Source of the DNA: Verrucomicrobiota bacterium
Lineage (GTDB): Bacteria; Verrucomicrobiota; Verrucomicrobiia; Limisphaerales; Palsa-1400
Assembly (NCBI GenBank): GCA_049510745.1
Contig: JBEKYR010000025.1
Span: 1,371 to 65,370 of the forward strand
Direction: 5' to 3'
Length of the DNA: 64,000 bases
A program made the translations under genes and the position numbers. Under the pieces are notes generated by a model. That model did not search any database and was not told the origin of the DNA. It saw only the letters and a list, made by a program, of their open reading frames with translations. Shown piece after piece: positions 11,765 through 50,858 of this stretch; positions within the stretch are counted from its first letter, which is position 1, and the number at the start of each line of letters is the position of its first letter.

Positions 11765-12091
11765 CTAAAGAGGCGGGTTTGTCGCCGATTTCAAACAGCG
11801 CAAGATCGCTTCGGCTGTGAAGTGTTCCAGCCACAATCGCTCGCGCGTGGCCGTCGCCCATTCGTTTGGCTCGTTGCCATAAACCAGATCAATCGCGCGG
11901 ATGCTCTCCAACCTCTCTGCCATGTCCTTGCGCAACTGTCGCTCCGCATCCGGCATGTCGCGCATCACCGCCACGGAACGCGCCACAAACTCCGCGTCCA
12001 CCAGCCTCGGCCTCGCCGAATCACTGCGGGGAACATCGAAAGGATCGCGCGGCGGCGGGGCAAAGAGTTCCGGTTGCGCGGCGTCTTTCAT
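11765..12091 (-). CDS. Hypothetical 108-aa protein translationally coupled to the upstream RM gene
   Basis: The ATG at 12091..12089 overlaps the TGA stop (12090..12088) of the methyltransferase gene (ATGA). The product starts MKDAAQPELFAPPPRDPFDV...; no family recognised. Confidence 0.5.
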   Translation of the reverse strand: MKDAAQPELFAPPPRDPFDVPRSDSARPRLVDAEFVARSVAVMRDMPDAERQLRKDMAERLESIRAIDLVYGNEPNEWATATRERLWLEHFTAEAILRCLKSATNPPL

Positions 12092-15000: not shown

Positions 15001-15627
15001 TTTGGCGGCTTCCACGCGCGAGCGGGCATCCCGCGCATACGAGGCGAGAAAGAAAGCGACGTCCTTGGGATTATTCAAAGGCGCGGCGTGGAGCATTACC
15101 CGCTTGAGGTATTCGGCAAAGCGTTCGCCAAGTTCATTGGCCGCTTTGCGCGGTTGCGCCGCAACCACCCAAAAGGATTTTTCGTCGGGCGCCAGTTGAA
15201 AGGATTCGAGCCGGAGCGGATTGCCGTTGTCGCCTCGTTTCAAAAGCAGAAAGCTGCGGTAATTCGTCACCAACACCTGCCCGTAATGCCTCACATAGTC
15301 GCCGACTTGTTTGCTCTCCGCCATGTCGTCAACCTCGGCCCCGGTGGATTTGACTTCAATGACACCGCGCGCTGGCAGCGGGATTCCGAGGAGCGGAGAT
15401 TCTTCGTTCGTGTTCTCCAGTTGATCGGGAGTGAACAGCCCGCCGTCCGGAAAACCCGCGCCGCTGTTCTTCGGGTGGATGAAGCAGAGGACTTTTGGTT
15501 TGAGCGTGTGACCGATGGCATTGAAGAGATTGGCCAGCGCGCCGTAGCCGGAAGTCTCCTCCGTCGCCGCGCCGGACGAACGAATGGCATGCAACTCATC
15601 GAGGTAGGTTTCGAGGGCGTTGCTCAT
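12088..15627 (-). CDS. Single-polypeptide Type IIG/IIL-like restriction-modification enzyme: N-terminal PD-(D/E)xK nuclease-like motif + gamma-class N6-adenine DNA methyltransferase + Type ISP-like C-terminal specificity domain
   Basis: 1179 aa. N-terminus has FPDGGLF...ARGVIEVKS (D...ExK). SAM-binding motif I is VLDPCCGTGAYL and catalytic motif IV is ILGNPPYNAY. The C-terminus has RPFDTQWCYY and YTIGGYQVIKKWLSYRE, as in Type ISP TRDs. There is no helicase domain. The gene contains visibly AT-richer stretches than its neighbours. Confidence 0.85.
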   Translation of the reverse strand: MSNALETYLDELHAIRSSGAATEETSGYGALANLFNAIGHTLKPKVLCFIHPKNSGAGFPDGGLFTPDQLENTNEESPLLGIPLPARGVIEVKSTGAEVDDMAESKQVGDYVRHYGQVLVTNYRSFLLLKRGDNGNPLRLESFQLAPDEKSFWVVAAQPRKAANELGERFAEYLKRVMLHAAPLNNPKDVAFFLASYARDARSRVEAAKDLPQLAAVRSALEEALGMKFEAEKGEHFFRSTLVQTLFYGVFSAWVLWRKEKPQRKDAFDWKSAAWTLHVPMISALFDQVATPAKLGPLKLVEVLDWTAAALNRVDHAAFFERFVEDHAVQYFYEPFLEAFDPELRKELGVWYTPPEIVQYQVARVDTALREELDIADGLADPRVFVLDPCCGTGAYLVEVLRRISQTLTEEKGEDALVNVELKEAAQKRVFGFEIMPAPFVVAHLQMGLLLQNLSVPLEDSKNERAGIFLTNALSGWDENIANPQLAKWPELEAERKGAGNVKQEKPILVILGNPPYNAYAGVSPKEEQGLVEIYKGIYWTQKKNKAGEDLFDEHGQRVMERHYKLSDPVKKGGWGIKKFNLDELYVRFFRIAERRIAEKTGKGIVCYISNHSWISDPSFVVLRQNLLNSFDSFWIENMHGNRKISEYAPDGRTSETVFALAGFSPGIQQGVAISLWVKTGKKQKKSVLFRDDLNDAKSADRRAHLLESLKEKKFNVQYKQAEPLKENWFGFKPTDIAAHYLSWPKITELSLRSPFAGIAEDRRKALISIEREPLVERMKKYFDPKVEWTALHELGTGLTRNVPRFDALKARKLLLSVESFDETRVVRFAMRPFDTQWCYYSPTRPLWREPRPDYWANYAVGSPAVVSRFKAAKSPEGAPITVARTLCDYHMMPPNASVFPFRLKQRERQKEEDDGNGKFGSILHEAAPAYKTGGEKLTANLSPAARAYLAKLGIKNPDADAETTGLIWMHALAIGYSPAYLAENADGIQQDWPRIPLPDSKAVLIASAELGKQVAALLDAEMPVDGVTAGKVFPELVKIAVVTRLTRDILNLSLTAGWGHAGKKGVTMPGKGKMQTRAFAQDETVAALGQTTHDIYLNDFACWSNVPENVWDYTIGGYQVIKKWLSYREFALLGRALTPEEAREVTHMARRIAALILLQPELDANYLCVKAGTFDWKT

Positions 15628-23038: not shown

Positions 23039-26000
23039 TCAGTTCTCCGGCCCGCCGGAAGTGAACATGCCGGGCAAACGGTATTTCGGGTAGTATTTCA
23101 CTCCTCCGCCTTGGCCGTCGAAGGGCATTTGCAGGCCGGTTTGAGTATCGACGATCACCTCTGTCTGGCTGATTCCCTTGGGAGCCCACCAGGGTCGGAT
23201 GAACGTGATCGACTTCATCTGGTATCTGTCCGTGGCCGGTATGACGTAAGGCTTCGCCTTCAGCCCCTCCGCCGGGCCTGGCAGTCTTTGAAACCACTTC
23301 AAGTAATGGTCCACTATGCTCTTGTCTGTTGGACACAGGGTCTTGTACCATTTGACAAAGTCCGCCGCGCGCCATTCCTTGTTGAGTCTCTTGGTTTCGT
23401 TTTGCATCCGGTTGTAATTTCTCACCGCCCACTGATAGACAATCGCCAGTCCTTGATAGGCATAGACCACGTCGCAGCCCCATTCCTTTTCCATATACTT
23501 GATCGCCTCATCCGAGCCTTTCCCATAAGGATCGATTCTGTCGGTGGGATTGTCGCCGGCGTACTGATAAAGGTTCAGCCCATCAACATACCCGGCCGAA
23601 TCGCGCTGCAAAAACCGGCCCTTGTTGGCGTCGTAACCGCGTGTCCGGTAATGATACAGGCCCGCCTCCTCGTCCAGCTCGCGGCTCGTGAACAGATAGG
23701 GATTCCCGACCGGGCTGTGCGGTGTGCCCCAGGCATTGAGCGGCAGCGGGTTGTAGGACGCGTCCAAAACGGTGACCTCGCCGTAGGCGTCATAACTGTA
23801 GCGTTCAACCACATTGCCGGTGGGATCGGTGAGCGCCTCCGGACTCCCAAGCGAGTTCGCGTGGTAGTAGTAACTGTCTCCCCCGCGATCCATCGTCAGG
23901 ACATCGTCCAGGTAATTGCTGCCGTAAGTATAGGTGGCCTGGGTCGCGGCGCTGGCATCCTGTTCCTCGATATTTCGGTCGGCATCGTAGAAAAAGACGT
24001 TGGTCGAAGGCGTGCCGGCAGGGTCTGCGATCTGGATAATGCGGCGGTCCAAGGCATCGTAGAAATAGCGGCCCACCTGGGCGGAGTCGCTCTTCCGTAT
24101 CACCGAAGTAAGCCGGTTTTCCATATCGTAGCCGTAAGTATAACTTCCATCGTCGGCCAGATTGCCGTCAGCGTCGTAGGTGAGCGTCTGAGCGTTAATG
24201 GTTTGGATCTCGTTGGCGGCGCTATGGGTCCGCGTTTGCGTGACAAGATTGCTGACCAGGGAGGACCAATTGCCCAGCGCATCCAGGGTCCAGGTCTTGG
24301 CGATGATGGGCGATGGAATGTTGCCGCCGGAAATGGCGCCGACATCATACTGGACAAGCCGGTTGATGGCGTCATAGGCGTAGGTTTCGGAATCCGCGGG
24401 GGCGTGCTGCTTTAACTCGGAACTTTTGTTGCCCTCGCTGTCGTAGGTATAGGCAAAACCGGCGATGAGAGAAGCGCCCTCATCATGGGCGAGATTGGTG
24501 ACCCAATTGTTGGGATTGTAACTGTAGGTTGCCGCCGTGGTGTTGCGATTAGTCCGCGTCACCAGATTGTTGGCCGTATCATATGTATATTGGGCGACAA
24601 ACGGCGCCAGGCCGTCATCCACCTCCGCCAACCGCCCGCGAAGGTCCGTGTGTTCGGTGATCACCCTGCCCCCCGGATAAGTCATGGTGCGGGTGCCTCC
24701 TGGCACGTTGTAAACGTAGGTGACCGACTCGCCATTCTGGGTGGCGCCGACCACGCGGCCTGCCCCGTCATAGGCAAAGGTGTTTGACCAAGTGCTGCGC
24801 GCCGCGGTGATGAGACGACCGCCCAGGTCGTAACCAAACTGGTCGGCTGGATCCGTGGAATAGCTCCGGTTCGTCATGTAGTAAAAATCGTTGTACTGCC
24901 AGGTGGTGGTGCGGCCCTCCTGGTCAACGCGCGAAATGAGATTTCCCACCGCGTCATACGTGTACGTCCGCGTGTCGGCGGGCGTATCGGGATACGTTTC
25001 CTTGATCCGGCGGTCAAGGGCGTCATAGCTATAAGTCGTCGTGTGGCCATTGGCATCGGTGACGGAAGTCACGTTGCCGACGGCGTCGTAAGCGGTGGAG
25101 CTGGTGTGGCCGAGGGCGTCAGTAACGCTCACCTGTCGATTTATGCCATCGTAGGCGAAGGTGGTCGTATGGCCATCGCGGTCGGTCCGTGAAATGACGT
25201 TGTCAACAGGATCGTAAACCGTGACAGTGGTGTGGCCCAGGGGGTCGATGGTCTCGACGACGCGGTTGAGGGAGTCATAGATATTCGTGCTGGTGTTGCC
25301 CAGCCCGTCAACGGTTTCAATCACATTGCCATCGGCGTCGTAAGCGGTCCTGCTGACGGAACCGAGCGCGTCGTCCGTCTCAATGGCGCGATTGGCGGGA
25401 TCGTAAACCGTGGTCGTGGTGTTGCCGCGCGGGTCAATGGTTTCGATGACATTGCCCGCCGCGTCATAAACAGTCGTCGTGGTGTCCCCGGTGGGATCGA
25501 CCGTCGAGACGCGGCGATCCAGCGCGTCATAACTATAGGTGGTCGTGTTGCCGTTTGGATCCGTGGTTGCTATGACGTTATTGTCGGCATCATAGACGGT
25601 GGTGGTGACGGCGTCCGAAGGGGTAACCACATCGGTCACGCCGCCGGATTTGCGGATCGTTTGAACCAGGCGATTTAACTCGTCATAATTATAGTAGGTG
25701 ATCTTTCCGTCGCCGTCGATCATCTCTGTAACAAGGGCCGAGCCAGCCGTGGCTCCGCAGCACGGCGGGCCGGCCGTGTTGGCGTAGTCGTAGGTGGTGG
25801 TGTCCCCGAGAGCGTCGGTTTGGGTGATCTTCCGGTTCAAGGCATCATAAGTGTAAGTGGTCGCATGGCCGTTGGCGTCGGTTGTGCTCGTCACATTGCC
25901 CACGCCGTCATAAGCGGTGGCGGAGACATTCCCCAGCGCGTCGGTGGTGCGGATCAGGCGGTTCTGCGTGTCATAGGTGAAGGAGGTCGAGTGGCCGTTT

Positions 26001-27772
26001 GGATCCGTTTGGGTAATGACGTTGTTGTTGGCGTCGTAGGCGCTGCTGGTAATGCCCCCCAACGCATTGGTCGTGCGGATGAGGCGGTCACGGATGTCGT
26101 AAGCATAAGAGGTGCTGTTGGTGTTGGGATCCGTGACGCGAATGCGATCATTGTCCGCATCGTATTGATAAGAGGTGACATGCCCCATCGGATCGGTCAT
26201 GGACGTCATCCGGTTGCGTCCATCGTAGTGGTAGGTGGTCGTGTTTCCGCGGGGGTCGGTCGTGCTGATCTGGTTTCCCACGGCGTCGTATTGGTAGGTC
26301 GTGACGTTGCCGAGGGCGTCGGTCATGTTGGTGCGGTCGCCCATCGCGTCGTACTTGAAAGTGGTCGTGTAGCCCCGCTGATCGGTTTGCGTCAGAACGT
26401 TGCCACGGCTGTCGTAAGTCATCCGTTGCGTCTGACCGAGGGGATCCGTGGTGTTGGTGCGGTTCCCCGAACCATCGTATTGATAGGTGGTGACGCGTCC
26501 GTTGGGGTCGGTCATGCTGGTGATCTGGTTGTAAATCGGCTCGTAGGTGTAAGTGGTCACATTGCCCAGCGCGTCGGTCATCCGGATGCGGTTGCCCTCG
26601 CCATCGTATTGATACCTGGTCACGTTGCCGTTGGCGTCCGTCATGGTCGAAACCTCCAACGACCCGGGATCGTATTGGTAGCGCGTCGCGCTGCCGTCAG
26701 GAGCAATGGTGTTGGTTGGGTAGCCGTTGGTATCATACTGGTATTTCCAGACGTTCCCGCGGCCGTCGGTCTGCTGGCTGGTGGAAGGGGTATAGACTCG
26801 CTCCTGCGACCCGGCCAGGGTGCTGGATGAGGTCGCCCAGTTATTCGGGTTGAACAGGGAGAATAAGCTGCCGGACGAGCTATCCTTGATGCCGACCGGC
26901 AGGTTGGCTTGATATTGATAGGTGTAGAGCCGCCCGTCGCCATCCGTTTTTGTCGCGATCTGGTTCAGGGCGTTGTAGGTGTAAGTCGTAACCTTGCCGG
27001 TGGGGTCGGTGACGGAAGCCAGGCGGCGGCCTGTGCTGTCGTAGGCAAAAGTGGTGACGCGACCGAGAGGGTCGGTTTCCTTTGTCATCAGCCCCGAGGC
27101 GTTGTACGTAAACTGGAGGGAACGCCCGTAAGTGTCGGTGACGCTCGCCAGGTTGCCGCCGGCGTAGGCCAGGGTGGTGACGTTGGTGTTCCGGTCGGTG
27201 ATGCTTTGCAGTCGATAGACCGGGCCGCCCACCTGAAAGGGGGCGCCGGAGACAATCGCGAAGCGGTAGCTGGTTTTATTCTTGGTGGTCAGGGTGAACG
27301 AGCCGTCGAAGTTCTTGACCAGCGTCTCAAAATAGCCCGTGTCGGAGGAATAGGCGCCGCCGGGTCCGGCCGTGAATTTCTCGGTCCGGCCATCGCCGTC
27401 CATGCGAAACATGCTGCCCACTTGCGAGAAGAGGAATGCGTTGTAGGAATGGGTCCATCCGTAGCCGAGAACGGTGTCCACCAAAGCATGCGAGCTGTCG
27501 GCATTGTAGGAATTGTAAGTCAGAGCGAGGTCAAGCGTCGGCGCGCTGGAACTCTGCACGGTGGTGATCGGGAGGATTTCCCGGTCGTTGCCTTCGGTCA
27601 GCCCGACGCCCGCCTTTCCACCGGTGTAAGAATTGGGCGCGCCGCACTCGGCGCATAAACTGGGACGCTCTCCGCCAATATAATTGGCCAAAGCGACAGG
27701 GGTGATGGCCGCCAGCGTCAGCAAAAACAAAAGGTCATGGCGGCAACGGCTCAATGATATTCGCGTGCTCAT
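23039..27772 (-). CDS. RHS/YD-repeat polymorphic toxin with signal peptide and unassigned C-terminal toxin tip
   Basis: 1577 aa with dozens of YD repeats (..TYTYDALNR.., ..YQYDGSGN..). The RHS core end is YYYHANSLGSPEALTD...GLYHYRTRGYDANKGRFLQRD...YQYAGDNPTDRIDPYG. About 160 aa of unrelated sequence follow it. Confidence 0.9.
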   Translation of the reverse strand: MSTRISLSRCRHDLLFLLTLAAITPVALANYIGGERPSLCAECGAPNSYTGGKAGVGLTEGNDREILPITTVQSSSAPTLDLALTYNSYNADSSHALVDTVLGYGWTHSYNAFLFSQVGSMFRMDGDGRTEKFTAGPGGAYSSDTGYFETLVKNFDGSFTLTTKNKTSYRFAIVSGAPFQVGGPVYRLQSITDRNTNVTTLAYAGGNLASVTDTYGRSLQFTYNASGLMTKETDPLGRVTTFAYDSTGRRLASVTDPTGKVTTYTYNALNQIATKTDGDGRLYTYQYQANLPVGIKDSSSGSLFSLFNPNNWATSSSTLAGSQERVYTPSTSQQTDGRGNVWKYQYDTNGYPTNTIAPDGSATRYQYDPGSLEVSTMTDANGNVTRYQYDGEGNRIRMTDALGNVTTYTYEPIYNQITSMTDPNGRVTTYQYDGSGNRTNTTDPLGQTQRMTYDSRGNVLTQTDQRGYTTTFKYDAMGDRTNMTDALGNVTTYQYDAVGNQISTTDPRGNTTTYHYDGRNRMTSMTDPMGHVTSYQYDADNDRIRVTDPNTNSTSYAYDIRDRLIRTTNALGGITSSAYDANNNVITQTDPNGHSTSFTYDTQNRLIRTTDALGNVSATAYDGVGNVTSTTDANGHATTYTYDALNRKITQTDALGDTTTYDYANTAGPPCCGATAGSALVTEMIDGDGKITYYNYDELNRLVQTIRKSGGVTDVVTPSDAVTTTVYDADNNVIATTDPNGNTTTYSYDALDRRVSTVDPTGDTTTTVYDAAGNVIETIDPRGNTTTTVYDPANRAIETDDALGSVSRTAYDADGNVIETVDGLGNTSTNIYDSLNRVVETIDPLGHTTVTVYDPVDNVISRTDRDGHTTTFAYDGINRQVSVTDALGHTSSTAYDAVGNVTSVTDANGHTTTYSYDALDRRIKETYPDTPADTRTYTYDAVGNLISRVDQEGRTTTWQYNDFYYMTNRSYSTDPADQFGYDLGGRLITAARSTWSNTFAYDGAGRVVGATQNGESVTYVYNVPGGTRTMTYPGGRVITEHTDLRGRLAEVDDGLAPFVAQYTYDTANNLVTRTNRNTTAATYSYNPNNWVTNLAHDEGASLIAGFAYTYDSEGNKSSELKQHAPADSETYAYDAINRLVQYDVGAISGGNIPSPIIAKTWTLDALGNWSSLVSNLVTQTRTHSAANEIQTINAQTLTYDADGNLADDGSYTYGYDMENRLTSVIRKSDSAQVGRYFYDALDRRIIQIADPAGTPSTNVFFYDADRNIEEQDASAATQATYTYGSNYLDDVLTMDRGGDSYYYHANSLGSPEALTDPTGNVVERYSYDAYGEVTVLDASYNPLPLNAWGTPHSPVGNPYLFTSRELDEEAGLYHYRTRGYDANKGRFLQRDSAGYVDGLNLYQYAGDNPTDRIDPYGKGSDEAIKYMEKEWGCDVVYAYQGLAIVYQWAVRNYNRMQNETKRLNKEWRAADFVKWYKTLCPTDKSIVDHYLKWFQRLPGPAEGLKAKPYVIPATDRYQMKSITFIRPWWAPKGISQTEVIVDTQTGLQMPFDGQGGGVKYYPKYRLPGMFTSGGPEN

Positions 27773-40604: not shown

Positions 40605-40765
40605 CAGTGAGTGGGTAAACGACTGCAACCGCGTTTGAATTTCTTGCCGCTGCAGGTTTGGCAGCAAGACGTCCGCTTTCCGCGGATCGTGACCCCGAAT
40701 TCCCTCAACACACCTGAAAACTGATGGCGTACCGGGTGAGGCGGATTGTATGCTTTGTGCGTCAT
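40601..40765 (-). CDS. Micro-ORF (54 aa) ending in a SEC-C-like metal-binding motif
   Basis: MTHKAYNPPHPVRHQFSGVLREFGVTIRGKRTSCCQTCSGKKFKRGCSRLPTHC, to be compared with the SEC-C motif CPCGSGKK(Y/F)KxCC. It overlaps neighbouring genes at both ends, so it is uncertain. Confidence 0.35.
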   Translation of the reverse strand: MTHKAYNPPHPVRHQFSGVLREFGVTIRGKRTSCCQTCSGKKFKRGCSRLPTHC

Positions 40766-42620
40766 GTCATATTCCCTGGCATTGTCGCCCGGGGGACATT
40801 TATTTGTCGAACCGGACGACCAAGCTGAACCGAAACTCAGCCACGCGACTGCTGCGCGCCTGACTGAGGCTTTCAGCGCCTCGCTCGCGCGCGGTTTGGA
40901 AACGCTGGTGTCGGAGTTCTTGCATGAACCACTGCCGCCCACCTTCGTATTTTGGCGTGGCGTTGCCCAACGACTCTTCATCTCGCTTTGTCACAACCCG
41001 AATTTGCAGGATGCTTCCACGATTACGATTTCCAAGCCGGCGGAGGCCGAGTGGTCCGCGCTGGCGGAAGGGGCACCGCCGATGAGGGGCCTGGAGTATT
41101 TGAATGGCGCAGTCCTGGCAAGATTGTGGGACGAGCTGGATGCTCATGTTCGTGCCGCCATCGCCCAAGCCCCGGGCGGAGCGGTGGCGTACCTGAAGAA
41201 CTGCAACCCGGTCTGGAATGCGGTTGGACGCGTCACTTTTCATCTGGCGGAGAACAAGCGCAACCCGGCGTATCCCTTTGCTTTCCTGGCCACCTACACC
41301 CATCGCATTTCCGAGCAGGGGAAAGTTCAGCATCTGCCGTTGGGCCGCGCTTTGGAAGAATATGCAGGGGCGAAGAATCGTGCCGCGCTGGCCGCGTTAT
41401 TGTCGCCGGTGCAGCGGGCGGCGGAACAGAGCAAACTGGCCCGCGAGTTGTTGGACTCATGCGCGATTTTTCATCCGCAAGTTTGGCGGCCCCACCAGGC
41501 GTTTTCGTTTCTGCAAAATATTCCTTTTTCCGAGCAAAGCGGCCTGGTGGTCCGGATTCCGGATTGGTGGAAGGCGGGGCGGCCACCCCGGCCGCAGGTG
41601 ACTGTGCGGATTGGCGAAGCCAAGGGAAACCTGCTCGGCGCTGATAGTTTGCTGGACTTCAAAGTGCAAATGTCGTTGGAAGGCGAGCCCCTGACGGAAT
41701 CGGAACTAAAGGCCATCCTGCAATCGGCCAGCGGTTTGGTGTTGCTCAAGGGCAAGTGGGTCGAGGTGGACCGGGACAAACTCCAGGAGGTCATGGATCA
41801 CTGGAAAAAGGTTGAGGCCGCTGGCGGCCCGGGCAGGATGCCACTGCTCGAAGGCCTGCGCCTTCTTTCCGGCTTCGAGGGCAGTCAAGCCGGCCAACCG
41901 GAGGCGGAAGCGGCGCGCGCGGCGTGGTCGAGCGTCGTGGCCGGAGGCGCCCTGAAGAAGTTGTTGGAGGAGATGCAGCAACCGGAGGTTTCCGCCGAGT
42001 CAGACCCGGGCCAGGATTTGCAGGCGACGTTGCGGCCGTATCAGCGCCAAGGCGCGCATTGGCTCTGGTTCATGAACCGGCTGGGACTGGGGGCCTGCCT
42101 GGCGGATGACATGGGTCTTGGCAAAACCATCCAAGTTCTATCCCTCCTGCTGGTGCTCAAGCGCCGACGAATCCAGCCGCCGCCTGCCGCCAGCGAGATC
42201 GGGGCAAGCCTCCTGATTGTGCCAGCCTCGCTTATTGCCAACTGGAAAGCCGAGATTCAGAAGTTTGCGCCTTCGCTGTCGGTGTTCTACGCCCATCCGG
42301 CGGAAACTCCCGCCGACGAACTTACCAGGACGGGGAAAGACCCGGCCAAAGCGCTGGAGCGCAGGGACCTTGTCATCATAAGTTACTCGATGGCCATTCG
42401 GCTGGCCTGGCTGAAGGAAGTCAATTGGAGCCTGGCCGTTCTGGACGAGGCGCAGGCGATAAAAAATCCGGGCGCGCGCCAGAGCCGGGCGGTGAGAGAA
42501 CTGCGCTGCCGGCACCGGATTGCGCTGAGCGGCACGCCGATTGAGAACCGGCTTTCGGATTTGTGGTCGCTCTTCGACTTCCTCTGTCCCGGCCTGCTGG
42601 GCGGCGCACGGGAGTTCGCG
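40764..42620 (+). pseudogene. SNF2-family helicase, C-terminally truncated (SNF2-associated N-domain + helicase motifs I-III only)
   Basis: Contains LRPYQRQGAHWLWFMNRLGLGACLADDMGLGKTIQ (motifs I/Ia), LAVLDEAQAIKNP (DEAQ box) and ALSGTPIENRLSDLWSLFDFLCPGLLG (motif III). After about 42610 the frame becomes low-complexity basic sequence, and no helicase C-terminal domain exists. Confidence 0.75.
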
Positions 42621-42639
42621 GCCTCCGGCCCCGCCGTCG

Positions 42640-42798
42640 ACGCCGGTGCCCAAGCGCGGATCGCAGCAGAAGCAAAAGACCGTGCGCAGATCAAGCGTCG
42701 CGATACGGGCAAGACTCGTGGCCGCCGCCAGGGCAAGATGGGCCAAGATCAAGAAACAGCAGCACGACAGCAAAGGCAACCAAGGCGGGCTAACTTGA
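42640..42798 (+). pseudogene. Fragment of an ARWAK-repeat protein gene abutting the SNF2 truncation point
   Basis: The alternative frame (ORF 42541..42798) reads ..RRSSVAIRARLVAAARARWAKIKKQQ.., paralogous to the C-terminus of 38774..39118. Confidence 0.35.
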
Positions 42799-43005
42799 GT
42801 GGGGATCGAGGCGTGCCGATGAGAAAAAGATCCGGTGCTCACAGGGGTTCCACTCCGATTATTTGTGTGCCGCCCAAATGAGAGGCAGTGGCAAGCCGTG
42901 CAGATTCGCGCTCGATTTCGCGGGCGCTTACCTCGATGTGCCACCGGAGTTTCCTGATGAAACTTGGGCTGCGTGCGAAGCTGAAAAGCTCGATCCATTT
43001 CCTGC

Positions 43006-44358
43006 TTAAATTTCTTCTTCGCCATCGGCCTGCCCGGCATCTTGCAAAGGGTTGAAGCCATTCCTGGCCATCTCGGCTTGGGACTCGTAGATCTCTGAGC
43101 CAGTACCCTCGTCTCGGGCGAGTTCCTGAGCAACGTACTCGACTTCCCCTTCATCGCCACTCTCGATGGTATCGATGATCATCTGGACGCTCTTCCGAAT
43201 AATGTCGATGGTGTTGTGCAGCCACATGTTGAGCATCTCGTTGGTCTTCGGCGCCGATTCCAGAACCATGAGGGCATCTGCCTCCAACTGCCTGGCCGCG
43301 GCGATGGCTTCGTCGTGTTCACCAGCCTTGACCAGTTGGATCAGCCGGAGAAGTTTGGGCCGCAGGTTGTGCTGCTTGATAAACTCTGTCGTTTCCTTGG
43401 GCACCACGGCGTTGTAGAGGTCGTTTCGCTTCACCGCTGGAGGCACCTGCTTGGCGGGGCTGAATCGCCCGTGGTCGATGCTCATGCTGCGCCCCGAATT
43501 CTTCTGGATGTATTTTTGGGCCAGGCTGTCGGCGATCTGGTTGTCGTTGCGGCTGATTTTTGTCAGATCATAGAGGTACGTTTTGCGCATCTTGCGGAGG
43601 AACACGCAGTAGGATTGCATCTTGTCCTTGGCGTGCCAGAGGCCGGCGATCTGCTTGGTGACGAGTTGAGAGTCAGAGAACGTCTGAACAGGCGCCTTGG
43701 GCTGAATCTCCGCAGGGTAGGCGTCCTCCAACACGAGCCTATTGAGGCGGGCCAGTGTCATACCCTGGGGGTTTTGATCCAGGAGTTGCTGCGTAGCGGG
43801 CCGCAAAGCGATCCCCGAAAGCATCAGGGCGTTGTAGATGGGCTGGCCGTGGATGATGGCGTTGAGCTCTGTAGCGAGGCTCCCTTTGAAGGCATCGAGT
43901 TCAGGGCCTGGTTCTGTGTTGGCTGGGGCGCGCTTTACCGCATTGTGCAGCTTTGCGCTGAAGAAAGCCGATATTTCGTCCGTCGGCGATCTGAATTTTT
44001 CCACCAACGGCGCCACGTTCTTGATGTCCGCGCCGGTGATGGTCGCAGGGGTGGCCAAGGTGGGTTGTGGATAAACTTCCTGTAAGATCCGGAGCCCGCA
44101 CTTCAAAGCCAGGTATTCCGCCTCGTTGCAGGTGCCGTGGCCGACGAACATGTGCTCTGCGAACAGGCACTGATCACGCTGGCGAGCAAAGAGGCCGATG
44201 TGCATGGCGCCGGGGTTCTCACATAGCCCATCCACATAAAGTCGGATCGGCTCTCCCTCCTCCAGGGAGACGCTGTACTCTGTTTTGACGCGTGCGACAA
44301 CGGTCTGGATTGCTTCATCGATGTTGGTAGTTTGCGGTTTGTTTTCTGTTGTGTTCAT
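43006..44358 (-). CDS. RNase H-fold (RNase HI/RVT_3-like) protein with a large internal insertion and an acidic helical C-terminal extension
   Basis: The ATG at 44358 gives MNTTENK... RNase H blocks: IRLYVDGLCENPGAMHIGLF (D), GHGTCNEAEYLALKCGLRILQE (E), then roughly 125-140 extra residues (counted by hand), then FSDSQLVTKQIAGLWHAKD (D) and ISRNDNQIADSLAQ (D). About 165 further residues follow, ending ..DAGQADGEEEI. Confidence 0.7.
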   Translation of the reverse strand: MNTTENKPQTTNIDEAIQTVVARVKTEYSVSLEEGEPIRLYVDGLCENPGAMHIGLFARQRDQCLFAEHMFVGHGTCNEAEYLALKCGLRILQEVYPQPTLATPATITGADIKNVAPLVEKFRSPTDEISAFFSAKLHNAVKRAPANTEPGPELDAFKGSLATELNAIIHGQPIYNALMLSGIALRPATQQLLDQNPQGMTLARLNRLVLEDAYPAEIQPKAPVQTFSDSQLVTKQIAGLWHAKDKMQSYCVFLRKMRKTYLYDLTKISRNDNQIADSLAQKYIQKNSGRSMSIDHGRFSPAKQVPPAVKRNDLYNAVVPKETTEFIKQHNLRPKLLRLIQLVKAGEHDEAIAAARQLEADALMVLESAPKTNEMLNMWLHNTIDIIRKSVQMIIDTIESGDEGEVEYVAQELARDEGTGSEIYESQAEMARNGFNPLQDAGQADGEEEI

Positions 44359-44404
44359 GCCGTCAACAGTGAGTGAGCGGAGATCCTTGTTTTCCTTGTT
44401 GTGG

Positions 44405-44989
44405 CTAAAGCTGGGGTAGGGACTCGGTCGAGAATTGCTGATCCAAGTCTGTCCAACCTGGGTGAAAATCCGGCCAATAGGAGACACGCTTCAGCGGCCT
44501 CTGGAACAAGTGTGAGTCGAACCGGAGGAGCCGGTGCATCTGGTGCATGGCCAGCCCATCCAGGCTCAGTTGCCTCTCGATTTCGCGGCCGGTGAGTGAA
44601 ATCAATCCCGCGCGGTCGCCATTGGTTCGGAAAGCGACATGGTTCATCAGGTTGACGATGCCCGCCTGCCAATCCAGCTGCTGGTGATAATAGGAGCGCA
44701 TGATCTCCGGCCCCAGATCGCACTCGGATTGGCTCAACTGGTTGGCCAGCCGAAGATTCCCACCCAGCCAAGAGTGAGTCAGGTGAGTGGAAAGCGGATA
44801 AGTCTTGAAATTCGGGTCCTTGGACAACTCCATGATGAGCCGCATAAAGTTGGTGTAGAAGGGCTCGATGCGCTGGAAGTAATTGAAGCCGCGGACGGCA
44901 GCGTGCTCCGTCGATAAGGTGTAGCACGACAAGTCCCCAGGCTTATCCAGCTCCATCTTCCAGTGGGTCATTACGATGGCCAGCACCAT
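44405..44989 (-). CDS. Hypothetical protein (194 aa), middle gene of the cassette
   Basis: ATG at 44989 lies 3 nt after the stop of the upstream ORF (TAG 44995..44993). No family recognised. Confidence 0.6.
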   Translation of the reverse strand: MVLAIVMTHWKMELDKPGDLSCYTLSTEHAAVRGFNYFQRIEPFYTNFMRLIMELSKDPNFKTYPLSTHLTHSWLGGNLRLANQLSQSECDLGPEIMRSYYHQQLDWQAGIVNLMNHVAFRTNGDRAGLISLTGREIERQLSLDGLAMHQMHRLLRFDSHLFQRPLKRVSYWPDFHPGWTDLDQQFSTESLPQL

Positions 44990-44992
44990 CGG

Positions 44993-45734
44993 CTACAGTT
45001 CCACCGGAAGCTGAAAAGGCAGGCCATCGTGAGTAACCGCGCCGCGCAGCAGGCACGTGGCGCCCTCAAACCCGTCGCGGTCCATCATCATCTCATCCTT
45101 GAGCTTCGGATCCAGCGTGGCGTAAACGCAACTCTCGCTGTGGCGCGCGACGACCCGCCGGCCGCTCGGCAACAGCATGGCCCCAGTCTCATGGTCATGA
45201 AGAGTGAAGTCCTCCATGGAGTTGGCGGCTGCTCTGAAGGGGTAGCCGTAAAAGCGATCCCCGTTGCCGAAGCGCGCTAGCACGCGCCAGGGGTCGGGTT
45301 CGCAGTCCACGCACGGGTAGGCAAACCCGCCGGTGGCCGGCAGGATGTCGGCAAAGATGGGCGCGGGAACGTCAGCCAGGCCGCCCAACTGAGCATCCGG
45401 ATATATATAGCGCGCCGGGAACAATTGCACGGGGCCCAAGCCGCGGGCGAGCGATCCCAGGAACAAAAACACCTTTTCGAGTTGAATGTGGGGTGCCAGG
45501 GCGAAGCCGATCTGGGGCAGGCCGACGATCAGCGTCGTGTTGACCCCTTGGAGTGTCTTGGGCTTGAGATCCTGCCAAAGCTGGTGGTGGTAGCGCAGGT
45601 GTGGCGGGCGTTTATCCCGAGCCAGGTGGCCTGAGACGGCGACTGGAGCCAGGGCACATGGAGGAGAGACGCATGTTCGGCCGGCAGTGGGACCATCTGT
45701 GGAAGCTGGTGCGCCAGGCCAAGCCTGGTTGATC
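44993..45734 (-). CDS. Hypothetical protein, apparently 5'-truncated or interrupted by the group II intron
   Basis: ORF 44993..45940 is open across the intron 5' end. Its only ATGs upstream of residue 240 (45769, 45757) lie inside intron sequence. The part outside the intron is about 247 codons. No family recognised. Confidence 0.5.
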
Positions 45735-46184
45735 GTGCGAACTGAAAGGTGAGCCATGTAAATGTCCATGAAACATGAAGCGACCCGCACTGCGACGGCG
45801 GCAACGTCGGCGCAGAAGCTGCGGGAAGCGCGCGCCGAGCTGTAGCGAAAGCGAACCGAAATGAGCCTCGTTACACTAAGTGAAGGTGGCCAGTTTGTCA
45901 GAGATAATGAAGCCAGCACGCTGGTCGAAGACATGGACACATGCGGGCCAGCGACCTTCCGGGGTCAAAGCGGACAGCGCGAGCGCCAAAGGATCAATCA
46001 AGGAACCTGGGAGGCCCACGTACGGAGGCAGGGAGTCGGGGGCCAATTTCGTTTGGCAATCCATAACCGGGCGGGACTGGGCGTGGGAGTCGGAAGGGCC
46101 CGTAGTAGCGGGGAAGCGAGTAATGATCGTGGAGCCAAGGGGCCCTAATGCAGAACGAGCCGAGTCAGAGGAAGGAAGAGCCGA

Positions 46185-47549
46185 TTGAGTAGCACAAACT
46201 ATTCCAGAACGGAACAAGCGGAGTGGATGCGCGAGCGGGCGCAAGTCCGTCAGAGTCTGATACTGCCGCCGCCCCTCTTTCAACTGAGACAGAAGCTGGG
46301 CCAAAAGGCCAAACAGGAACCCAAGTATCGGTTCTACACGCTCTATGGGCGCATCTGTGAGAGGCAGACGCTCGTGGCGGCTTGGGACCAGGTGCGAGCC
46401 AATGGCGGCGCCCCTGGCGTAGATGGGATGAGTATAGAAGGGGTGGAAAAGTCCGAAGGCGGGCTGGAACGGTTTCTCAACGAGATCGAGACGGAACTGC
46501 GCCGGAAGACTTACCGCCCCAAGCCGGTCAAGCGGGTATATATCCCCAAGGCCAATGGGAAACTGAGACCGCTGGGCATACCGACGGTACGCGACCGGGT
46601 CGTCCAGATGGCGGCATTGCTGATTCTGGAGCCGATCTTTGAAGCGGACTTCGAGGAATGTTCCTACGGGTTTCGGCCGGGGCGCTCGGCGCACTTGGCG
46701 TTGCGGGAAATCCAAGAACATCTGCAAGCCGGTTACTGCGCGGTGTATGATGCAGACCTCAAGGGCTACTTCGATACGATACCGCACGACAAGCTCATGG
46801 CGTGCGTGCGGATGAGAGTGGTGGACCGGTCGGTGCTGCGCCTGATACGGATGTGGCTGGAAGCTCCGGTGGTGGAGAAGAAGGACGGAGGCCCGCCCAC
46901 AGTCAAGCGCAACGACCGGGGGACACCGCAGGGCGGAGTCATTTCGCCCCTGCTGGCCAACATTTACCTGCACTGGTTCGACACAGCGTTTCATCGTGCC
47001 GACGGGCCCGCCCAATGGGCCAAGGCCAAGTTGGTGCGGTATGCGGACGACTTTGTCGTGCTGGCGCGGTATCAAAGCCAGCAGCTACGAGGTTTCATTG
47101 AGGCCAAGCTGGAAGGGTGGCTGGGACTGACGGTGAACCGGGCAAAGACGCGCGTGGTGGAATTGAAAGAACCCAAGGCCAGCCTGGACTTTCTGGGCTA
47201 CACCTTTGGGTTCAACCGAGACCTTCACGGCGGAGGGCACCGGTATCTGAACCTGGAACCATCGGCCAAGGCGCTGGCCCGCGAGCGGGAGGCGTTGCGG
47301 CAGATGACCGGGCCGGAACAGTGCTTCACGCCATTGCCCGAACTTATTAAGAGGATCAACCGGCACCTGCGAGGATGGGGGAAGTATTTCAGTCTGGGGT
47401 ATCCGCGCAAGGCGCGTCGGCACATCAACTCGTATGTTCGGCAACGGCTGACGTATCATCTCCAGCGCAGGAGTCAGCGCGGCTACCGCCCGCCAGCGGG
47501 GTCGAGCTTCTACGACCATCTCAACCGAATGGGGTTAATTTACCTGTGA
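46185..47549 (+). CDS. Group II intron reverse transcriptase/maturase (no En domain)
   Basis: Contains [74 protein letters not shown] (YADD) and the X domain [13 protein letters not shown]. There is no HNH tail. The track start is TTG at 46185; the first ATG is at 46227. Confidence 0.9.
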
Positions 47550-47574
47550 ATGCCTGCGGCGACAGACTGCATGA

Positions 47575-47607
47575 GAGCCGGATGCGGAAAAGCCGCACGT
47601 CCGGTTC
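47575..47607 (+). ncRNA. Group II intron domain V
   Basis: GAGCCGGATGCGGAAAAGCCGCACGTCCGGTTC folds with the AGC catalytic triad at nt 2-4, a 2-nt AC bulge on the 3' strand and an A-rich terminal loop. Confidence 0.85.
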
Positions 47608-47669
47608 GACGAGGGGGAGGGGAGCGGCGGTCATTGACCTTCGGGCCTTTCAACCCGTGCTTTCCCTCT

Positions 47670-47960
47670 CTACTCTACTGTGTCGCATCTAATTTTTGGT
47701 TGGTATCTCCACTCCCTAAGAGCTTCGGGGAAGTTGCCAGTCACCGAAGCTGTCATGCAGGCCTGGATATCCAATCCATCGGGAAGCTGAAAGTCGGTCA
47801 AGGTCTTGGCGCGCGTGAGGGGAATGGCGCAATTGAGCACCTGCCGGTTCTTGCCAAGCACTTGAAGACATTTGGAAAATGCGTTTTCGGTGTGCTCGGC
47901 GCCCGGGAGTGAAATCGCGTCCCATCGTTCTGGAAGTTTTTCATTTTGTTGCGTCATCAT
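47670..47960 (-). CDS. Hypothetical N-terminal ORF whose stop lies in the intron 3' terminus (possible 5' half of the interrupted gene)
   Basis: The ATG-ATG at 47960/47957 gives MMTQQNEKLPERWDAISLPGAEHTENAFSKCLQVLGKNRQVLNCAIPLTRAKTLTDFQLPDGLDIQ... The TAG at 47672..47670 lies within or at the predicted intron end. Confidence 0.4.
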   Translation of the reverse strand: MMTQQNEKLPERWDAISLPGAEHTENAFSKCLQVLGKNRQVLNCAIPLTRAKTLTDFQLPDGLDIQACMTASVTGNFPEALREWRYQPKIRCDTVE

Positions 47961-47968
47961 GTTTCTGC

Positions 47969-48047
47969 GAGAGGTGAAGGGCGTGCAGACAGGACGGCGC
48001 CAGCCCTCCGCCGTCAAGGACGGTCGGGTGGGGAACCATGAGGAAAC
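47969..48047. repeat. Repeat family C, copy 1 (about 80 bp)
   Basis: gagaggtgaagggcgtgcagacaggacggcgccagccctccgccgtcaaggacggtcgggtggggaaccatgaggaaa. Confidence 0.8.
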
Positions 48048-48247
48048 GACCCTTGGTGTTGTCAATTCTGTCCGCATGTTGTCAAGTATGCGTTTGGCGT
48101 AAGCCATGTGCATGTCACACCAGCCGACGAGGTTCCTCTTCCTGCCTCGCAGGCTGTGAACGGGGGAAAATCTGCTGGGTCCAGGCGTGCAGCTCGGATC
48201 CGAACGACTTCAGGCTGACAAGTTTCGGCGAAAATCAATGGCTCTGG

Positions 48248-48385
48248 GAGAGGTGAAGGGCGTGCAGACAGAACGGCACCGGCCCTACGCCGCCAAGGAG
48301 GTCGGGTGGTTAACGAAATCCGTGAGTCAAGGCGCTGGAAAATCTTAATTGTCGTTCGCCAGTTGGGTGGGGAACCCTGAAGAAA
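48248..48385. repeat. Repeat family C, copy 2, carrying a roughly 55-bp insertion (48310-48363) flanked by GGGTGG
   Basis: gagaggtgaagggcgtgcagacagaacggcaccggccctacgccgccaaggaggtcgggtgg [ttaacg...cgccagt] tgggtggggaaccctgaagaaa. About 90 percent identity to copy 1 outside the insertion, by eye. Confidence 0.8.
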
Positions 48386-48682
48386 TACGCACAACGCAGG
48401 GCCATTCCTGAGCATCAGGTGATGGTAGTTCGCGCCCTAACAAAGCCGGCTCATTGAGCAGGCCACTGTTCGCCAATGGTCATGTACCCGGCTACGCGGC
48501 CCCGCTGTCCGGACCCTTTGGAGGTTTCGGAGTGGATTTACGCTGACCCCTCCTTTCGGATGCGGGACGTGTATGAGTGTCATCCGAAGGAAGACCCCCG
48601 GCAGGAGCACTTGGCATTTTGGTGGCGTTTGATTTCAGAATTCAGACTTGCACAAATCCTCAAATAAGTTGAGGATATGTGT

Positions 48683-49252
48683 ATGCCGAAGAAAAACGAT
48701 CCTTTCGCTGCTCTGATGACGGTCGCGCAAGACCAGCAAGGCTACTTTACCACCAAGCAGGCCATTGAGGCAGGGTACGCGGACAACACACACCCGTATC
48801 ACGTCCATGCGGGGAATTGGGAGCGCGTGTGCCGTGGCATCTACCGGATGGCGCATTTTCCGCCGCCAGAGGACGGGGAAATGATGGCCTGGCTGCTCTG
48901 GTCACGCGGACGGGATGAAAAGCCGGTGGCCGCGATGTCGCACCAAACCGCCCTCAGCCTGTTCGAGTTGGGTGATTTCAACCCGGCCAAAGTTCACATG
49001 AGCGTTCCAAAAACATTTCGTCGAAACAGCCCGACTCCCAAAGCGGTCGTGCTGCACCGGGCGACACTGGCACCCACCGAGGTCACGAGACTGCGCGGCC
49101 TGATGGTATGCCGCCCGCTGCGGGCGCTGTCTGACCTGGCCAGCACCAACCCTGACGCGGTCGCCAAAGCGCGGCGTTTAATCAAGCGTAAAGCGCCCGC
49201 CGGCGCGCGCGAAAGTGCGGGCCGGAGCCAGTCCCGACACGTCGGTTCGTAG
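48683..49252 (+). CDS. AbiEi-family antitoxin/transcriptional regulator (orphan; no AbiEii toxin gene follows)
   Basis: MPKKNDPFAALMTVAQDQQGYFTTKQAIEAGYADNTHPYHVHAGNWERVCRGIYRMAHFP...MSHQTALSLFELGD..VHMSVP...VVLHRATL...VCRPLRALSDL follows the AbiEi_4 pattern. GAGGA lies 7 nt upstream of ATG 48683; the track start is 48677. Confidence 0.7.
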   Translation: MPKKNDPFAALMTVAQDQQGYFTTKQAIEAGYADNTHPYHVHAGNWERVCRGIYRMAHFPPPEDGEMMAWLLWSRGRDEKPVAAMSHQTALSLFELGDFNPAKVHMSVPKTFRRNSPTPKAVVLHRATLAPTEVTRLRGLMVCRPLRALSDLASTNPDAVAKARRLIKRKAPAGARESAGRSQSRHVGS

Positions 49253-49337: not shown

Positions 49338-50858
49338 TTACGGGATGGAAATCGAATGGTTGTGTGTCGGTTCCTTGCCGACAAGGTTGGCTGCGTCGCC
49401 CATCGCAATGGGGCTATTGCTCAGCCCGATGGCCGTGTGCTTGGGATGCAGGTATTCGGAGAAAGCGGCGCCAGGGTGTGCCCCATTGCCCACAAAGGCC
49501 AGATTGGCTGAAGCATTGGGTTCCTTGGTAATAATGTCCTGGAAAGACAGCGGTTTGCCCCTGCGTGCCATCATTTTGCGAACCCCGGCCAAAGGCATCG
49601 TGGCGCTGGCCAGGTAGTTCATAACGGCGGTATTGGTGCCCATCACCCATTCCGTTACGCCGCGCAGTTGGAAGTCTTTGACCATATCCACCACGGTTTG
49701 GTCGGCCAGTCGGGGATCTGCCAGGTCCAGAGCATTGACGAACCAGCCAGTGGCGGTGGCCCAATAACCACCGTTCTGATACGTGTCCTTGGCACAAGCT
49801 AAGTCCCAATACTGGCCGGCGGGAAGATGGCGGATCTGCCCACATTGCACGATCTCGCGGTAATGTCCTTTGAAATAGTTCGCGATCGTGCGGGCTTGTG
49901 CTGGCGTGGCCACCTCCAGGTAGATTGCGAAAGCTGAACCCCAAATATCTGGCTGTTTGCAAAAAGCCGTGGCCGCGCGAAACAGCCCGATTTTCTCATC
50001 CCAGAACGTCTCGCGAATCGCTGGCGCTAATCGATCGGCCTCGGTCCGCCAGCGCTTCGCGTCGTCGGAGCGCTTTCCTGCGTCCAAAAGGTCGGCCAAC
50101 TGGCGGCAGGCCTGGACGTAGAGCAGAGAGCAGAACAACTCATCACCCTGCTTGCGCACTGAATCGGTGAAGCCGTAAGGGCATCGGTCCCAGCCCTCTG
50201 GCTTGATGTAAACCAAGCCGGTGTTGGGGTTGCGCGGCGTTGCGCCCATCGTTTTAACGAGCTTGTCGAGGATCTGGTCCAAGAGCTTGCCGTCCTTTGT
50301 CTTTTGATAAGTGCACCACGCCACCTCCACGGTAAATTGGGAGCCGTCCGCGACGGGATTGTCTCCCATGCGGCCGTAGCCGGGCATGTAGATCGGCCGA
50401 CCGCTGAACATCACGCAATCGACACCAGCCCCATCTTCGCGCAACGCATCGATGAACACGCGGCACGAGTCAGTCAGTTCCTTGTCACTGAAGGCGTCGG
50501 CGCACCCTTCAAGCATGTAAGCATAATCGCGCAGCCAAAAAGCTTCGTAGCCGGCTCCAGCCTGCGGTGGAAACGCGGCCACACCGTTCGGCATTTCGCG
50601 GCGACTAGCTTTGATCATTGTTCTCGCTTTTATTTCCAGCCAGCGAACTGCGTCAAGCAGCGACTGCTCAGTCAAAGTGCGCTCGGCGCTGGTGTCCAAG
50701 CGTTCAGTGGCCGCCAGGCTCTGAGTCTGGGGCGTGTCCTTGGATTGAAAAACGAGCGCATGGGCGGATTCGACTACTGCCGGAAGCGGCGGCTCCGCCG
50801 CTAAGTGAGCCGCCAGGAAGCCGAGCGTCAGCGCAGGAATGAGTCGGTGGTCAGACAT
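49338..50858 (-). CDS. Secreted (alpha/alpha)6-barrel glycosidase-like protein
   Basis: 506 aa with a signal peptide. FWLRDYAYMLEG, NGGYWATATGWF and related motifs are typical of six-hairpin glycosidases. The family is not resolved. Confidence 0.65.
   Translation of the reverse strand: MSDHRLIPALTLGFLAAHLAAEPPLPAVVESAHALVFQSKDTPQTQSLAATERLDTSAERTLTEQSLLDAVRWLEIKARTMIKASRREMPNGVAAFPPQAGAGYEAFWLRDYAYMLEGCADAFSDKELTDSCRVFIDALREDGAGVDCVMFSGRPIYMPGYGRMGDNPVADGSQFTVEVAWCTYQKTKDGKLLDQILDKLVKTMGATPRNPNTGLVYIKPEGWDRCPYGFTDSVRKQGDELFCSLLYVQACRQLADLLDAGKRSDDAKRWRTEADRLAPAIRETFWDEKIGLFRAATAFCKQPDIWGSAFAIYLEVATPAQARTIANYFKGHYREIVQCGQIRHLPAGQYWDLACAKDTYQNGGYWATATGWFVNALDLADPRLADQTVVDMVKDFQLRGVTEWVMGTNTAVMNYLASATMPLAGVRKMMARRGKPLSFQDIITKEPNASANLAFVGNGAHPGAAFSEYLHPKHTAIGLSNSPIAMGDAANLVGKEPTHNHSISIP

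Follow-up and report, generated by a model that had tools for sequence, protein, structure and literature searches.

We analysed a 64,000-nucleotide (nt) stretch of DNA from a Verrucomicrobiota bacterium (contig JBEKYR010000025.1, hereafter the window), in which a first-pass annotation had described, on the minus strand at positions 43006-47960, a compact cassette of three genes (A, B and C) whose first member is split by an antisense group II intron. By comparison with relatives, this supposed three-gene cassette reads as two genes, namely a dead copy of a gene that we call AB, followed by an intact gene C for an RNase H-like protein. We consider it very likely that the locus represents the first two genes of a conserved Verrucomicrobiota operon in a copy that is displaced and decaying, with AB a pseudogene and C intact. 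The events in the window would be ordinary ones, that is a retroelement insertion and the decay of a pseudogene in an accessory island.

The apparent genes A and B are parts of one gene

The three packed minus-strand open reading frames (ORFs) of the first-pass annotation are present in the ORF listing: A (44993..45940), B (44405..44989) and C (43006..44358, a reading frame that lies within ORF 43006..44487). Every start codon of ORF A sits inside the intron, and A indeed has no credible start outside it. On the far side of the intron, the minus-strand ORF 47670..48113 has ATG-ATG at 47960 and ends after 96 codons at a stop codon inside the intron, as had been described. The JGI gene calls on the source contig consist of the same five pieces, i.e. 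a 96-amino-acid (aa) ORF, a 440-aa reverse transcriptase on the opposite strand, then ORFs of 258, 194 and 450 aa.

First, a search with joined A returned 183 uncurated proteins, nearly all of them 510-540 aa long with a query coverage of 97-100%, and these homologs run on through the whole of B. Second, we aligned a 530-aa relative (P0002) by tblastn to the minus strand from which 45709..47678, the span of the intron, had been removed. Residues 7-133 aligned in one frame with 78% identity and residues 133-530 in another with 85% identity, the frame switching at His133. The repaired window AB is thus covered from aa 7 to aa 530 at 78-85% identity with one frame switch and one in-frame internal stop, which falls where the relatives have Gln335. 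Since the relatives encode a single protein of ~530 aa that covers all the pieces, the far-side ORF, A and B are, on sequence grounds, debris of one gene (Table 1). The proposal that the two pieces flanking the intron belong together is thereby borne out, whereas A and B, divided by an in-frame TAG where the 530-aa relatives have Gln, do not stand as separate genes, and the three-gene module is reduced to two genes.

Table 1. Features of the AB-C locus in the window.
Feature	Coordinates	Strand	Basis
AB upstream leader/promoter region	47961..48110	-	Alignment: partial conservation upstream of AB in copies L010, L012, L014 and L015
AB 5' piece, codons 1-94 (MMTQQNEK...KIRCDT), up to the point of intron insertion	47679..47960	-	P0002 tblastn across the junction; DNA collinear with L001/L009
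Complete group II intron, 1970 nt, GTGCG...CTAC, antisense to AB, without target-site duplication	45709..47678	+	Empty sites, other copies, Rfam
Intron-encoded protein, predicted reverse transcriptase and maturase	46227..47549	+	RVT_1, GIIM; open from TTG 46185, ATG 46227
AB codons ~95-133 (QLPQMVPLPAEH...WLGINARH), true frame, not the frame of ORF A	45604..45708	-	88.9% identity to L001 aa 98-133
Frameshift, 2-nt insertion in a CACAC run	45599-45603	-	DNA comparison with L001 and L009; tblastn frame switch
AB codons ~134-334 (ORF A proper)	44996..45598	-	85% identity to P0002
In-frame amber TAG for Gln335, the apparent A/B boundary	44993-44995	-	Alignment of relatives
AB codons 336-530 (ORF B), natural TAG stop at 44405-44407	44405..44992	-	tblastn alignment keeps its frame through the stop
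Gene C, intact, 450 aa	43006..44358	-	Pfam RVT_3; homology to the L001 neighbour; AlphaFold/Foldseek
Helical module of 123 aa, in frame in the RNase H core (C aa 99-221)	43696..44064	-	Absent from the 320-aa majority of C homologs

The leader directly 5' of the AB start (47959-48046) recurs with 87-88% identity at 48238-48299 and 48362-48385, some 280-340 nt farther upstream. A second AB may have left a trace of its 5' end here, or a regulatory region may have been duplicated.

A complete group II intron lies antisense within AB

The split of the first gene by an antisense group II intron was confirmed. Rfam models matched at 45745-45974 (RF02005, domains D1-D4; 74.1 bits for a gathering score of 49) and at 47573-47678 (RF00029, domain V/VI; 48.3 bits for a gathering score of 40), and the intron-encoded protein matched Pfam RVT_1 (E=7.9e-36) and GIIM (E=6.7e-11), with no endonuclease domain detected by the Pfam scan.

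Two lines of evidence define its ends. First, in the empty sites of loci L001 and L009, the bases matching window positions 45708 and 47679 adjoin each other; on the gene strand, with a slash at the insertion site, L001 reads ...GCCGAGCCA/CAGCTTCCGCAG and the window ...TGCGACACA/CAGCTTCCACAG. Second, the other copies of the intron (L043-L046 for the 5' end, also L047 for the 3' end, plus the 68%-identical L049 and L054) share sequence exactly from GTGCGCCAGG (GTGCGCCAGGCCAAGCCTGG) to CTACTCTAC (CCTACTCTAC) and diverge outside. GTGCG, at window position 45709, forms the first shared bases in five of the six other copies, L054 having GTACA. Outside the intron, the copies keep only short exon motifs, that is ATCYGTG upstream, then after ~3-5 nt a 4-nt motif ending in YG (mostly ATCYG), and TG downstream, and the AB target ...ATCTGTGGAAGCTG/TG resembles these flanks. 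Since the empty sites and the span shared by the other copies agree, the intron extends over 45709..47678 (a length of 2 mod 3) and not over 45735..47673 as had been supposed.

By combining in silico the starts 45709 and 45735 with the ends 47673, 47678, 47679, 47683 and 47688, we found that several deletions give open frames. All other junctions were rejected, the sequence of the homologs being reproduced by 45709..47678 only. A start at the second GTGCG (45735), to which the Rfam D1-D4 model start at 45745 had pointed and which would make a 26-nt hairpin a co-mobilised exon, was also rejected: all other copies share these 26 nt and diverge only upstream of 45709. The in-frame fusion of the first-pass annotation is therefore a tempting misreading. 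Deleting 45735..47673 (1939 nt, 1 mod 3) does open one frame, but this is a coincidence of guessed intron ends, with 36 codons read in the wrong frame as INQAWPGAPAST...; all relatives have QLPQM...WLGINARH here, a stretch that in the window is encoded in a different frame. With the precise boundaries, the junction is out of frame relative to ORF A, one of the outcomes that the first-pass annotation had itself named as refuting.

The intron would have come by reverse splicing into the strand opposite AB. By established splicing chemistry, a host transcript cannot remove an antisense intron lying on the non-coding strand, and the gene is truncated. Since the intron cannot splice out of the AB messenger RNA (mRNA), translation of AB would end after 94 native and two intron-encoded codons, 96 in all.

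A protein-guided metagenome scan returned many relatives of the intron, including full-length ones of 85-91% identity in peat metagenomes; an exact-pattern metagenome scan for the intron 5' region gave no match. At the protein level, identity is 85-91% to five close peat or soil metagenome copies and 62-70% to most of the other relatives kept. The presence of several copies at different metagenome sites, together with the intact ORF, is indirect evidence that the intron may self-splice and retrohome. In the domain VI region (47618-47650), the window copy, L044 and L046 carry an extra ~28-34 nt that is absent from L043, L045 and L047. Locus L032 has a 5'-truncated AB copy (8493-9362, aa 241-530) and, 85 nt upstream of it in the same orientation, a fragment of the protein of a different group II intron (7568-8407; 47% identity, aa 35-327). 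An intron may here have become associated with AB a second time, independently, or the two may be junk beside junk.

A frameshift and a nonsense codon add to the decay of AB

Two further lesions were found in AB. The first is a 2-nt insertion 36 codons downstream of the intron insertion point: on the gene strand, the window reads AACGCCCGCCACACCTGCGC where L001 and L009 have ...CGCCAC directly, then CTT/TTG. The second is the amber codon, in GTGGAACTGTAGCCGATGGTG, which encodes VEL*PMV with a stop at the asterisk (VEL*PMVLAIV in the window) for VEMQPLV in relatives (VEMQPLVLAVV). Residue Q335 is invariant in 38 AB sequences, and the CAG-to-TAG change would close the AB frame at codon 335.

We asked whether the intron alone might disrupt AB, the frameshift and the stop being assembly errors or being bypassed by recoding, and we regard this as extremely improbable. 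The window comes from a metagenome assembly and the frameshift falls in a short CACAC repeat, but the exact aberrant 258-aa ORF, which arises only if intron junction, shifted frame and TAG are all present, is on record from three contigs, which argues against assembly errors. Recoding of TAG is unlikely because AB also uses TAG as its natural terminator; the relatives have no recoding signal at either site.

The AB homologs are under purifying selection, with a ratio of nonsynonymous to synonymous substitution rates (dN/dS) of ~0.1 (0.09 for the paralogs L010/L012). Set against these intact genes, the intron, the 2-nt insertion and the amber codon mark the window AB as a pseudogene. The gene is thus disrupted, as the first-pass annotation had suggested, but it is not merely modulated by the intron. 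Since the dN/dS of the repaired AB against L001, L009 and L010 (0.11-0.15) is in the same range as that of the intact copies among themselves (0.10-0.16), inactivation would be recent relative to the divergence from these three loci. The 2-nt insertion and the TAG would have come before or after the intron, under relaxed selection.

These data also bear on whether the locus could be a functional three-gene system of the defence type, the first gene of which is reversibly switched off or modulated by the intron and restored in frame by its precise removal. Such a system would agree with the single open frame obtained by deleting 45735..47673, with an island that holds an AbiEi-like gene, a truncated SNF2 gene and an integrase fragment, and with the finding that solo AB copies elsewhere are often near recombinases and SNF2/Wadjet-type genes. 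However, the true intron ends are others, the frameshift and the amber codon persist after exact intron removal, every full-length relative has A and B as a single protein, splicing cannot free the mRNA of the gene from an antisense intron, and no PADLOC match was found for A, B or C. This explanation is already refuted by the structure of the locus, and we hold it to be very improbable overall.

AB and C are the first two genes of a conserved operon

AB is followed by C, with a spacing of 46-125 nt, in L001, L004-L008, L015, L019, L020, L021, L023 and L034; the conserved co-occurrence expected of the cassette thus holds for AB and the RNase H-like gene as neighbours in other genomes. In L001, L004-L006, L007, L019 and L023, the two belong to a co-directional array of AB, C, a gene for ~93-130 aa, a gene for ~310 aa and a T2SSF (GspF/PilC-like) gene, the last being seen where the downstream flank is long enough (L001, L004, L005, L007, L019, L023). 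No match for the ~310-aa gene was found in L019, and L006 ends inside this gene. A divergent orphan gene of ~800 aa lies upstream and, often, infC and a second ~800-aa orphan gene lie beyond T2SSF, the two flanking orphans being on the opposite strand. Almost all proteins of the array (L001 5431-16932; equivalents in L004, L007, L019 and L023) are without a Pfam match. The divergence of AB tracks that of its neighbours, which fits vertical inheritance of the operon. The conserved setting in relatives is therefore a five-gene operon ending in a GspF/PilC-like gene near infC, and not the defence context that had been proposed.

In the window, we found none of the other operon genes but only AB and C, as in L015, and the DNA similarity to L001 ends 3 nt past the stop codon of C. 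For these two reasons, the AB-C pair of the window appears to be a partial duplicate of the operon that holds only its first two genes and has been displaced.

Several points weigh against the reading of the locus as a displaced, decaying copy. First, our view of the genome is the 64-kilobase (kb) window, and an intact AB or the full operon is possible elsewhere in the genome. Second, the three lesions may have come in any order. Third, C could be silent, and AB is entirely without a functional assignment. Fourth, many AB copies are without C (L002, L003, L009, L010, L012, L014, L022, L024-L031), and the AB-C link is not obligatory.

AB belongs to an uncharacterised family with several copies per genome

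AB gave no match in Pfam, NCBIfam, PADLOC or PHROG, and a profile search with 38 sequences found no sequence relative in the PDB. A profile search of 1.84 billion cluster representatives returned a single full-length cluster, which is the AB family itself, plus fragments. The AlphaFold2 model built with the family alignment has a predicted local distance difference test score (pLDDT) of 89.7 and a predicted template modelling score (pTM) of 0.92, and a Foldseek search with it against the PDB and BFVD gave no fold match (best template modelling (TM) score <0.1). The statement that A and B resemble no family thus holds for curated libraries, though not for uncurated proteins, among which the 183 homologs were found. 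Together, these searches and the model present AB as an uncharacterised family without a recognisable relative in sequence or fold beyond itself.

Among species-representative genomes, AB was found mostly in metagenome-assembled genomes (MAGs) labelled Verrucomicrobiota, Verrucomicrobiae or Limisphaerales, the record titles of which point to peat, palsa and sediment samples. The few matches in MAGs of other phyla are probably due to mis-binning. Judged from these records, the family appears confined to Verrucomicrobiota MAGs from peat and soil.

A MAG can hold several AB loci, many of them truncated: three in MFD00008.bin.2.151, three in SPRUCE 528, five in SPRUCE 325 and two in AMR_MDS_1537. 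Copies in the same genome share 88-94% DNA identity over the gene and only about 55-155 nt upstream and 6-55 nt downstream, and the ends of these identity blocks differ between copy pairs. Boundary alignments showed neither terminal inverted repeats nor target-site duplications; in one AB clade, weak direct similarity of 11-13 nt is seen at the boundaries. We then scanned 150 ORFs lying within 5 kb of 20 AB copies without C, several of them truncated. The commonest neighbours were Phage_integrase (4), Resolvase (4), SNF2-rel_dom and Helicase_C (4 each) and Recombinase (3), together with single transposases, and PADLOC models (DrmD, DrmA, BrxH and similar) matched up to six helicase-type ORFs. 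These data are at most suggestive of AB mobility.

They could mean that AB is the single gene of a self-dispersing unit of ~1.75 kb, either a new transposase or a cassette moved by neighbouring recombinases, and that the window holds a dead copy that carried C along. We regard this as unlikely. The three, three and five copies in individual MAGs, the high in-genome identity confined to the gene and short flanks, the many truncated fragments and short contigs ending in AB, and the integrases or serine recombinases beside solo copies all argue for such a unit. However, neither terminal inverted repeats nor target duplications were found, no empty site is available for comparison with a solo AB copy, and AB has no transposase or recombinase domain or fold according to Pfam, NCBIfam, PHROG, PDB sequence and Foldseek searches. 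Moreover, AB sits in a vertically inherited operon, its divergence tracking that of the neighbours, the paralogs are under purifying selection like ordinary genes, and copies in different MAGs may be old paralogs and not recent transpositions. In the same vein, it is conceivable, with a small chance of being right, that AB represents a previously unseen fold and a dispersing unit working with a specialised RNase H-like nuclease, as a new type of mobile element or as a defence or anti-mobile-element module; if so, the window would keep a copy killed by a competing retroelement.

Truncated AB copies (L032, L033, L035, L036, L038, L039 and L040) break in the same stretch, aa ~241-262, where 5' halves of AB end and 3' halves begin. 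This hints at a recurrent hotspot of insertion or recombination. The fusion partners of AB fragments (P0121, P0160, P0218 and P0201) gave no functional clue, and these proteins are probably disrupted AB copies.

Returning to the displaced-copy reading, the wider interest lies in the AB family, which is strongly conserved, has ~530 aa, a dN/dS of ~0.1 and a confident model and is normally encoded immediately before a divergent RNase H. For experiments, the L001 pair and other intact relatives are suitable, and the window copy is not. As a working guess, made because of the conserved adjacency only, AB might act together with the RNase H-like nuclease, or regulate it, in the processing of nucleic acids.

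Gene C encodes an intact RNase H-like protein

C consists of a type-1 RNase H core (aa ~35-98 and 222-285) followed by a helical C-terminal region of ~165 aa. C shares 69% identity with the neighbouring gene in L001 from end to end, is without lesions and passes the Pfam RVT_3 threshold (33.1 bits for a cut-off of 21.6; E=6e-8). The four RNase H acidic residues noticed in the first-pass annotation are all there: D43, E81, D229 and D277 are invariant in 43 family members and align with the RNase HI motifs, and C aligns by sequence to the Halobacterium and LC11 RNases H1. With the AlphaFold model of C (pLDDT 84), Foldseek retrieved LC11-RNase H1, Halobacterium and Sulfolobus RNase HI and the N-domain of Rv2228c (4h8k, 3u3g, 4e19, 3aly, 3hst, 2ehg) with a probability of 1.0 and TM scores (target) of 0.67-0.80. 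Since C stays below the NCBIfam RNase HI equivalog cut-offs (19-34 bits for cut-offs of 140-326), it is a divergent relative and not an orthologue of a named RNase HI. The helical C-terminal extension is conserved and gave no structural match. If still transcribed, C most likely cleaves the RNA strand of RNA/DNA hybrids.

A complete catalytic DEDD in C and the conserved adjacency of the two genes at 46-125 nt are also what one would expect if AB-C were a two-gene module for defence or against mobile elements that targets nucleic acids, with an RNase H-type effector and a novel sensor, here inactivated. AB loci lie beside ThiF/Multi_ubiq and PDDEXK genes in L004, JetC/JetD in L024 and PLD-SNF2 in L009. 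However, we found no positive evidence for a defence role of AB-C: a search of PADLOC-DB 2.0 with joined A, B and C gave no match at E<=1, and there is no relation to PHROG families. In addition, the canonical pair belongs to a GspF-like operon next to infC, in a conserved position such as defence genes seldom have; outside that operon, AB mostly occurs without C, and the defence-type neighbours are those of individual loci. We therefore find such a module quite improbable.

A recurring module is inserted in C

The in-frame module of C is found only in the clade that comprises the window, L001 and L015, most C homologs having ~320 aa. A module of this kind, helical, ~115-125 aa long and ending in ...LARLNRLLLEDAYPxE, recurs in frame inside or at the ends of unrelated proteins. 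Its hosts include an RNA polymerase beta' fragment (P0392), sigma-54 (P0405), an ECF sigma factor (P0371), DUF1080 proteins (P0339, P0335, P0359) and tyrosine integrases; it is also present in L003:4465-6129 (aa ~175-297) and at the N-terminus of L028:6403-9651. The L003 integrase carries the module and its L031 ortholog is without it. More than 200 matches were obtained, and the module corresponds to no Pfam family. The module may be a promiscuous domain, or it may have begun long ago as a selfish insertion in frame, and ordinary domain shuffling may also account for its spread; no terminal repeats or target duplications were seen at its copies. Our literature search found nothing relevant on the in-frame module or on intron pseudogenes of Verrucomicrobia. 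The recurrence of the module in RNA polymerase beta', sigma factors and integrases of the same lineage may merit a separate study.

Surroundings of the locus

AB-C sits between a truncated SNF2 gene and an AbiEi-like gene. The SNF2-family helicase gene (40746-42881, plus strand; DUF3670 and SNF2-rel_dom) appears truncated: its SNF2 domain matches only positions 1-190 of the 290 in the profile and is not followed by Helicase_C. The tail of this ORF, which ends 124 nt from the 3' end of C, resembles out-of-frame sequence, as judged from frames read by eye. On the other side lies a gene for an AbiEi_4-type antitoxin or regulator (48677-49252, plus strand); it is followed by an ORF for a glycoside hydrolase (49338-50858, minus strand), and no obvious AbiEii toxin partner is adjacent.

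Farther away, the segment 34587-34826 (plus strand) encodes a short fragment that resembles the C-terminal catalytic region of a tyrosine integrase (38% identity to aa 444-519 of the L003 integrase, E=7e-9), in line with the integrase debris reported before. A Type ISP-like restriction-modification protein (12088-15627, minus strand; N6_Mtase and Type_ISP_C) and a 1577-aa RHS-repeat protein (23039-27772, minus strand) are encoded 15-30 kb from AB-C, among housekeeping genes (class II tRNA synthetase, M16 peptidase, aldehyde dehydrogenase). The suggestion of a mobile or defence island is thus supported as far as accessory-like surroundings go, with the truncated SNF2 gene, the AbiEi-like gene and the integrase fragment, but the cassette itself matches no known defence family.

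Comparison with known systems

C resembles the type-1 RNases H (LC11-RNase H1, Sulfolobus tokodaii RNase HI, Halobacterium RNase HI and the Rv2228c N-domain) in its fold, its invariant DEDD and its sequence matches. It differs from them by scores far under the NCBIfam equivalog cut-offs, by the ~165-aa helical C-terminal extension and, in the clade of the window, by the 123-aa module placed between helix A and strand 4.

Rickettsia palindromic elements are selfish in-frame insertions in protein genes. The C module is alike in that a conserved peptide lies inside many unrelated proteins of one lineage, essential ones included. Unlike these elements, it is a well-folded helical domain of ~115-125 aa (pLDDT >90) with copies that are 30-55% identical.

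The intron looks, from sequence alone, like the endonuclease-less introns of the type of RmInt1 from Sinorhizobium meliloti. It shares with them the 5' GTGCG and 3' ...AC ends, the Rfam D1-D4 and D5/D6 matches, a protein with reverse transcriptase and maturase in domain IV, exact insertion without target duplication and the short exon motifs that every copy keeps upstream of the site; the window intron, L044 and L046 are set apart by their extra domain VI sequence. Endonuclease-less introns are known to enter genes on either strand, with replication determining the bias (PMC4075523). An insertion antisense to AB also has a counterpart in the laboratory. By analogy, the truncation of AB by an antisense group II intron would be comparable to a targetron-style knock-out. 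Unlike targetrons, it is a natural event, and AB has gathered two further lesions.

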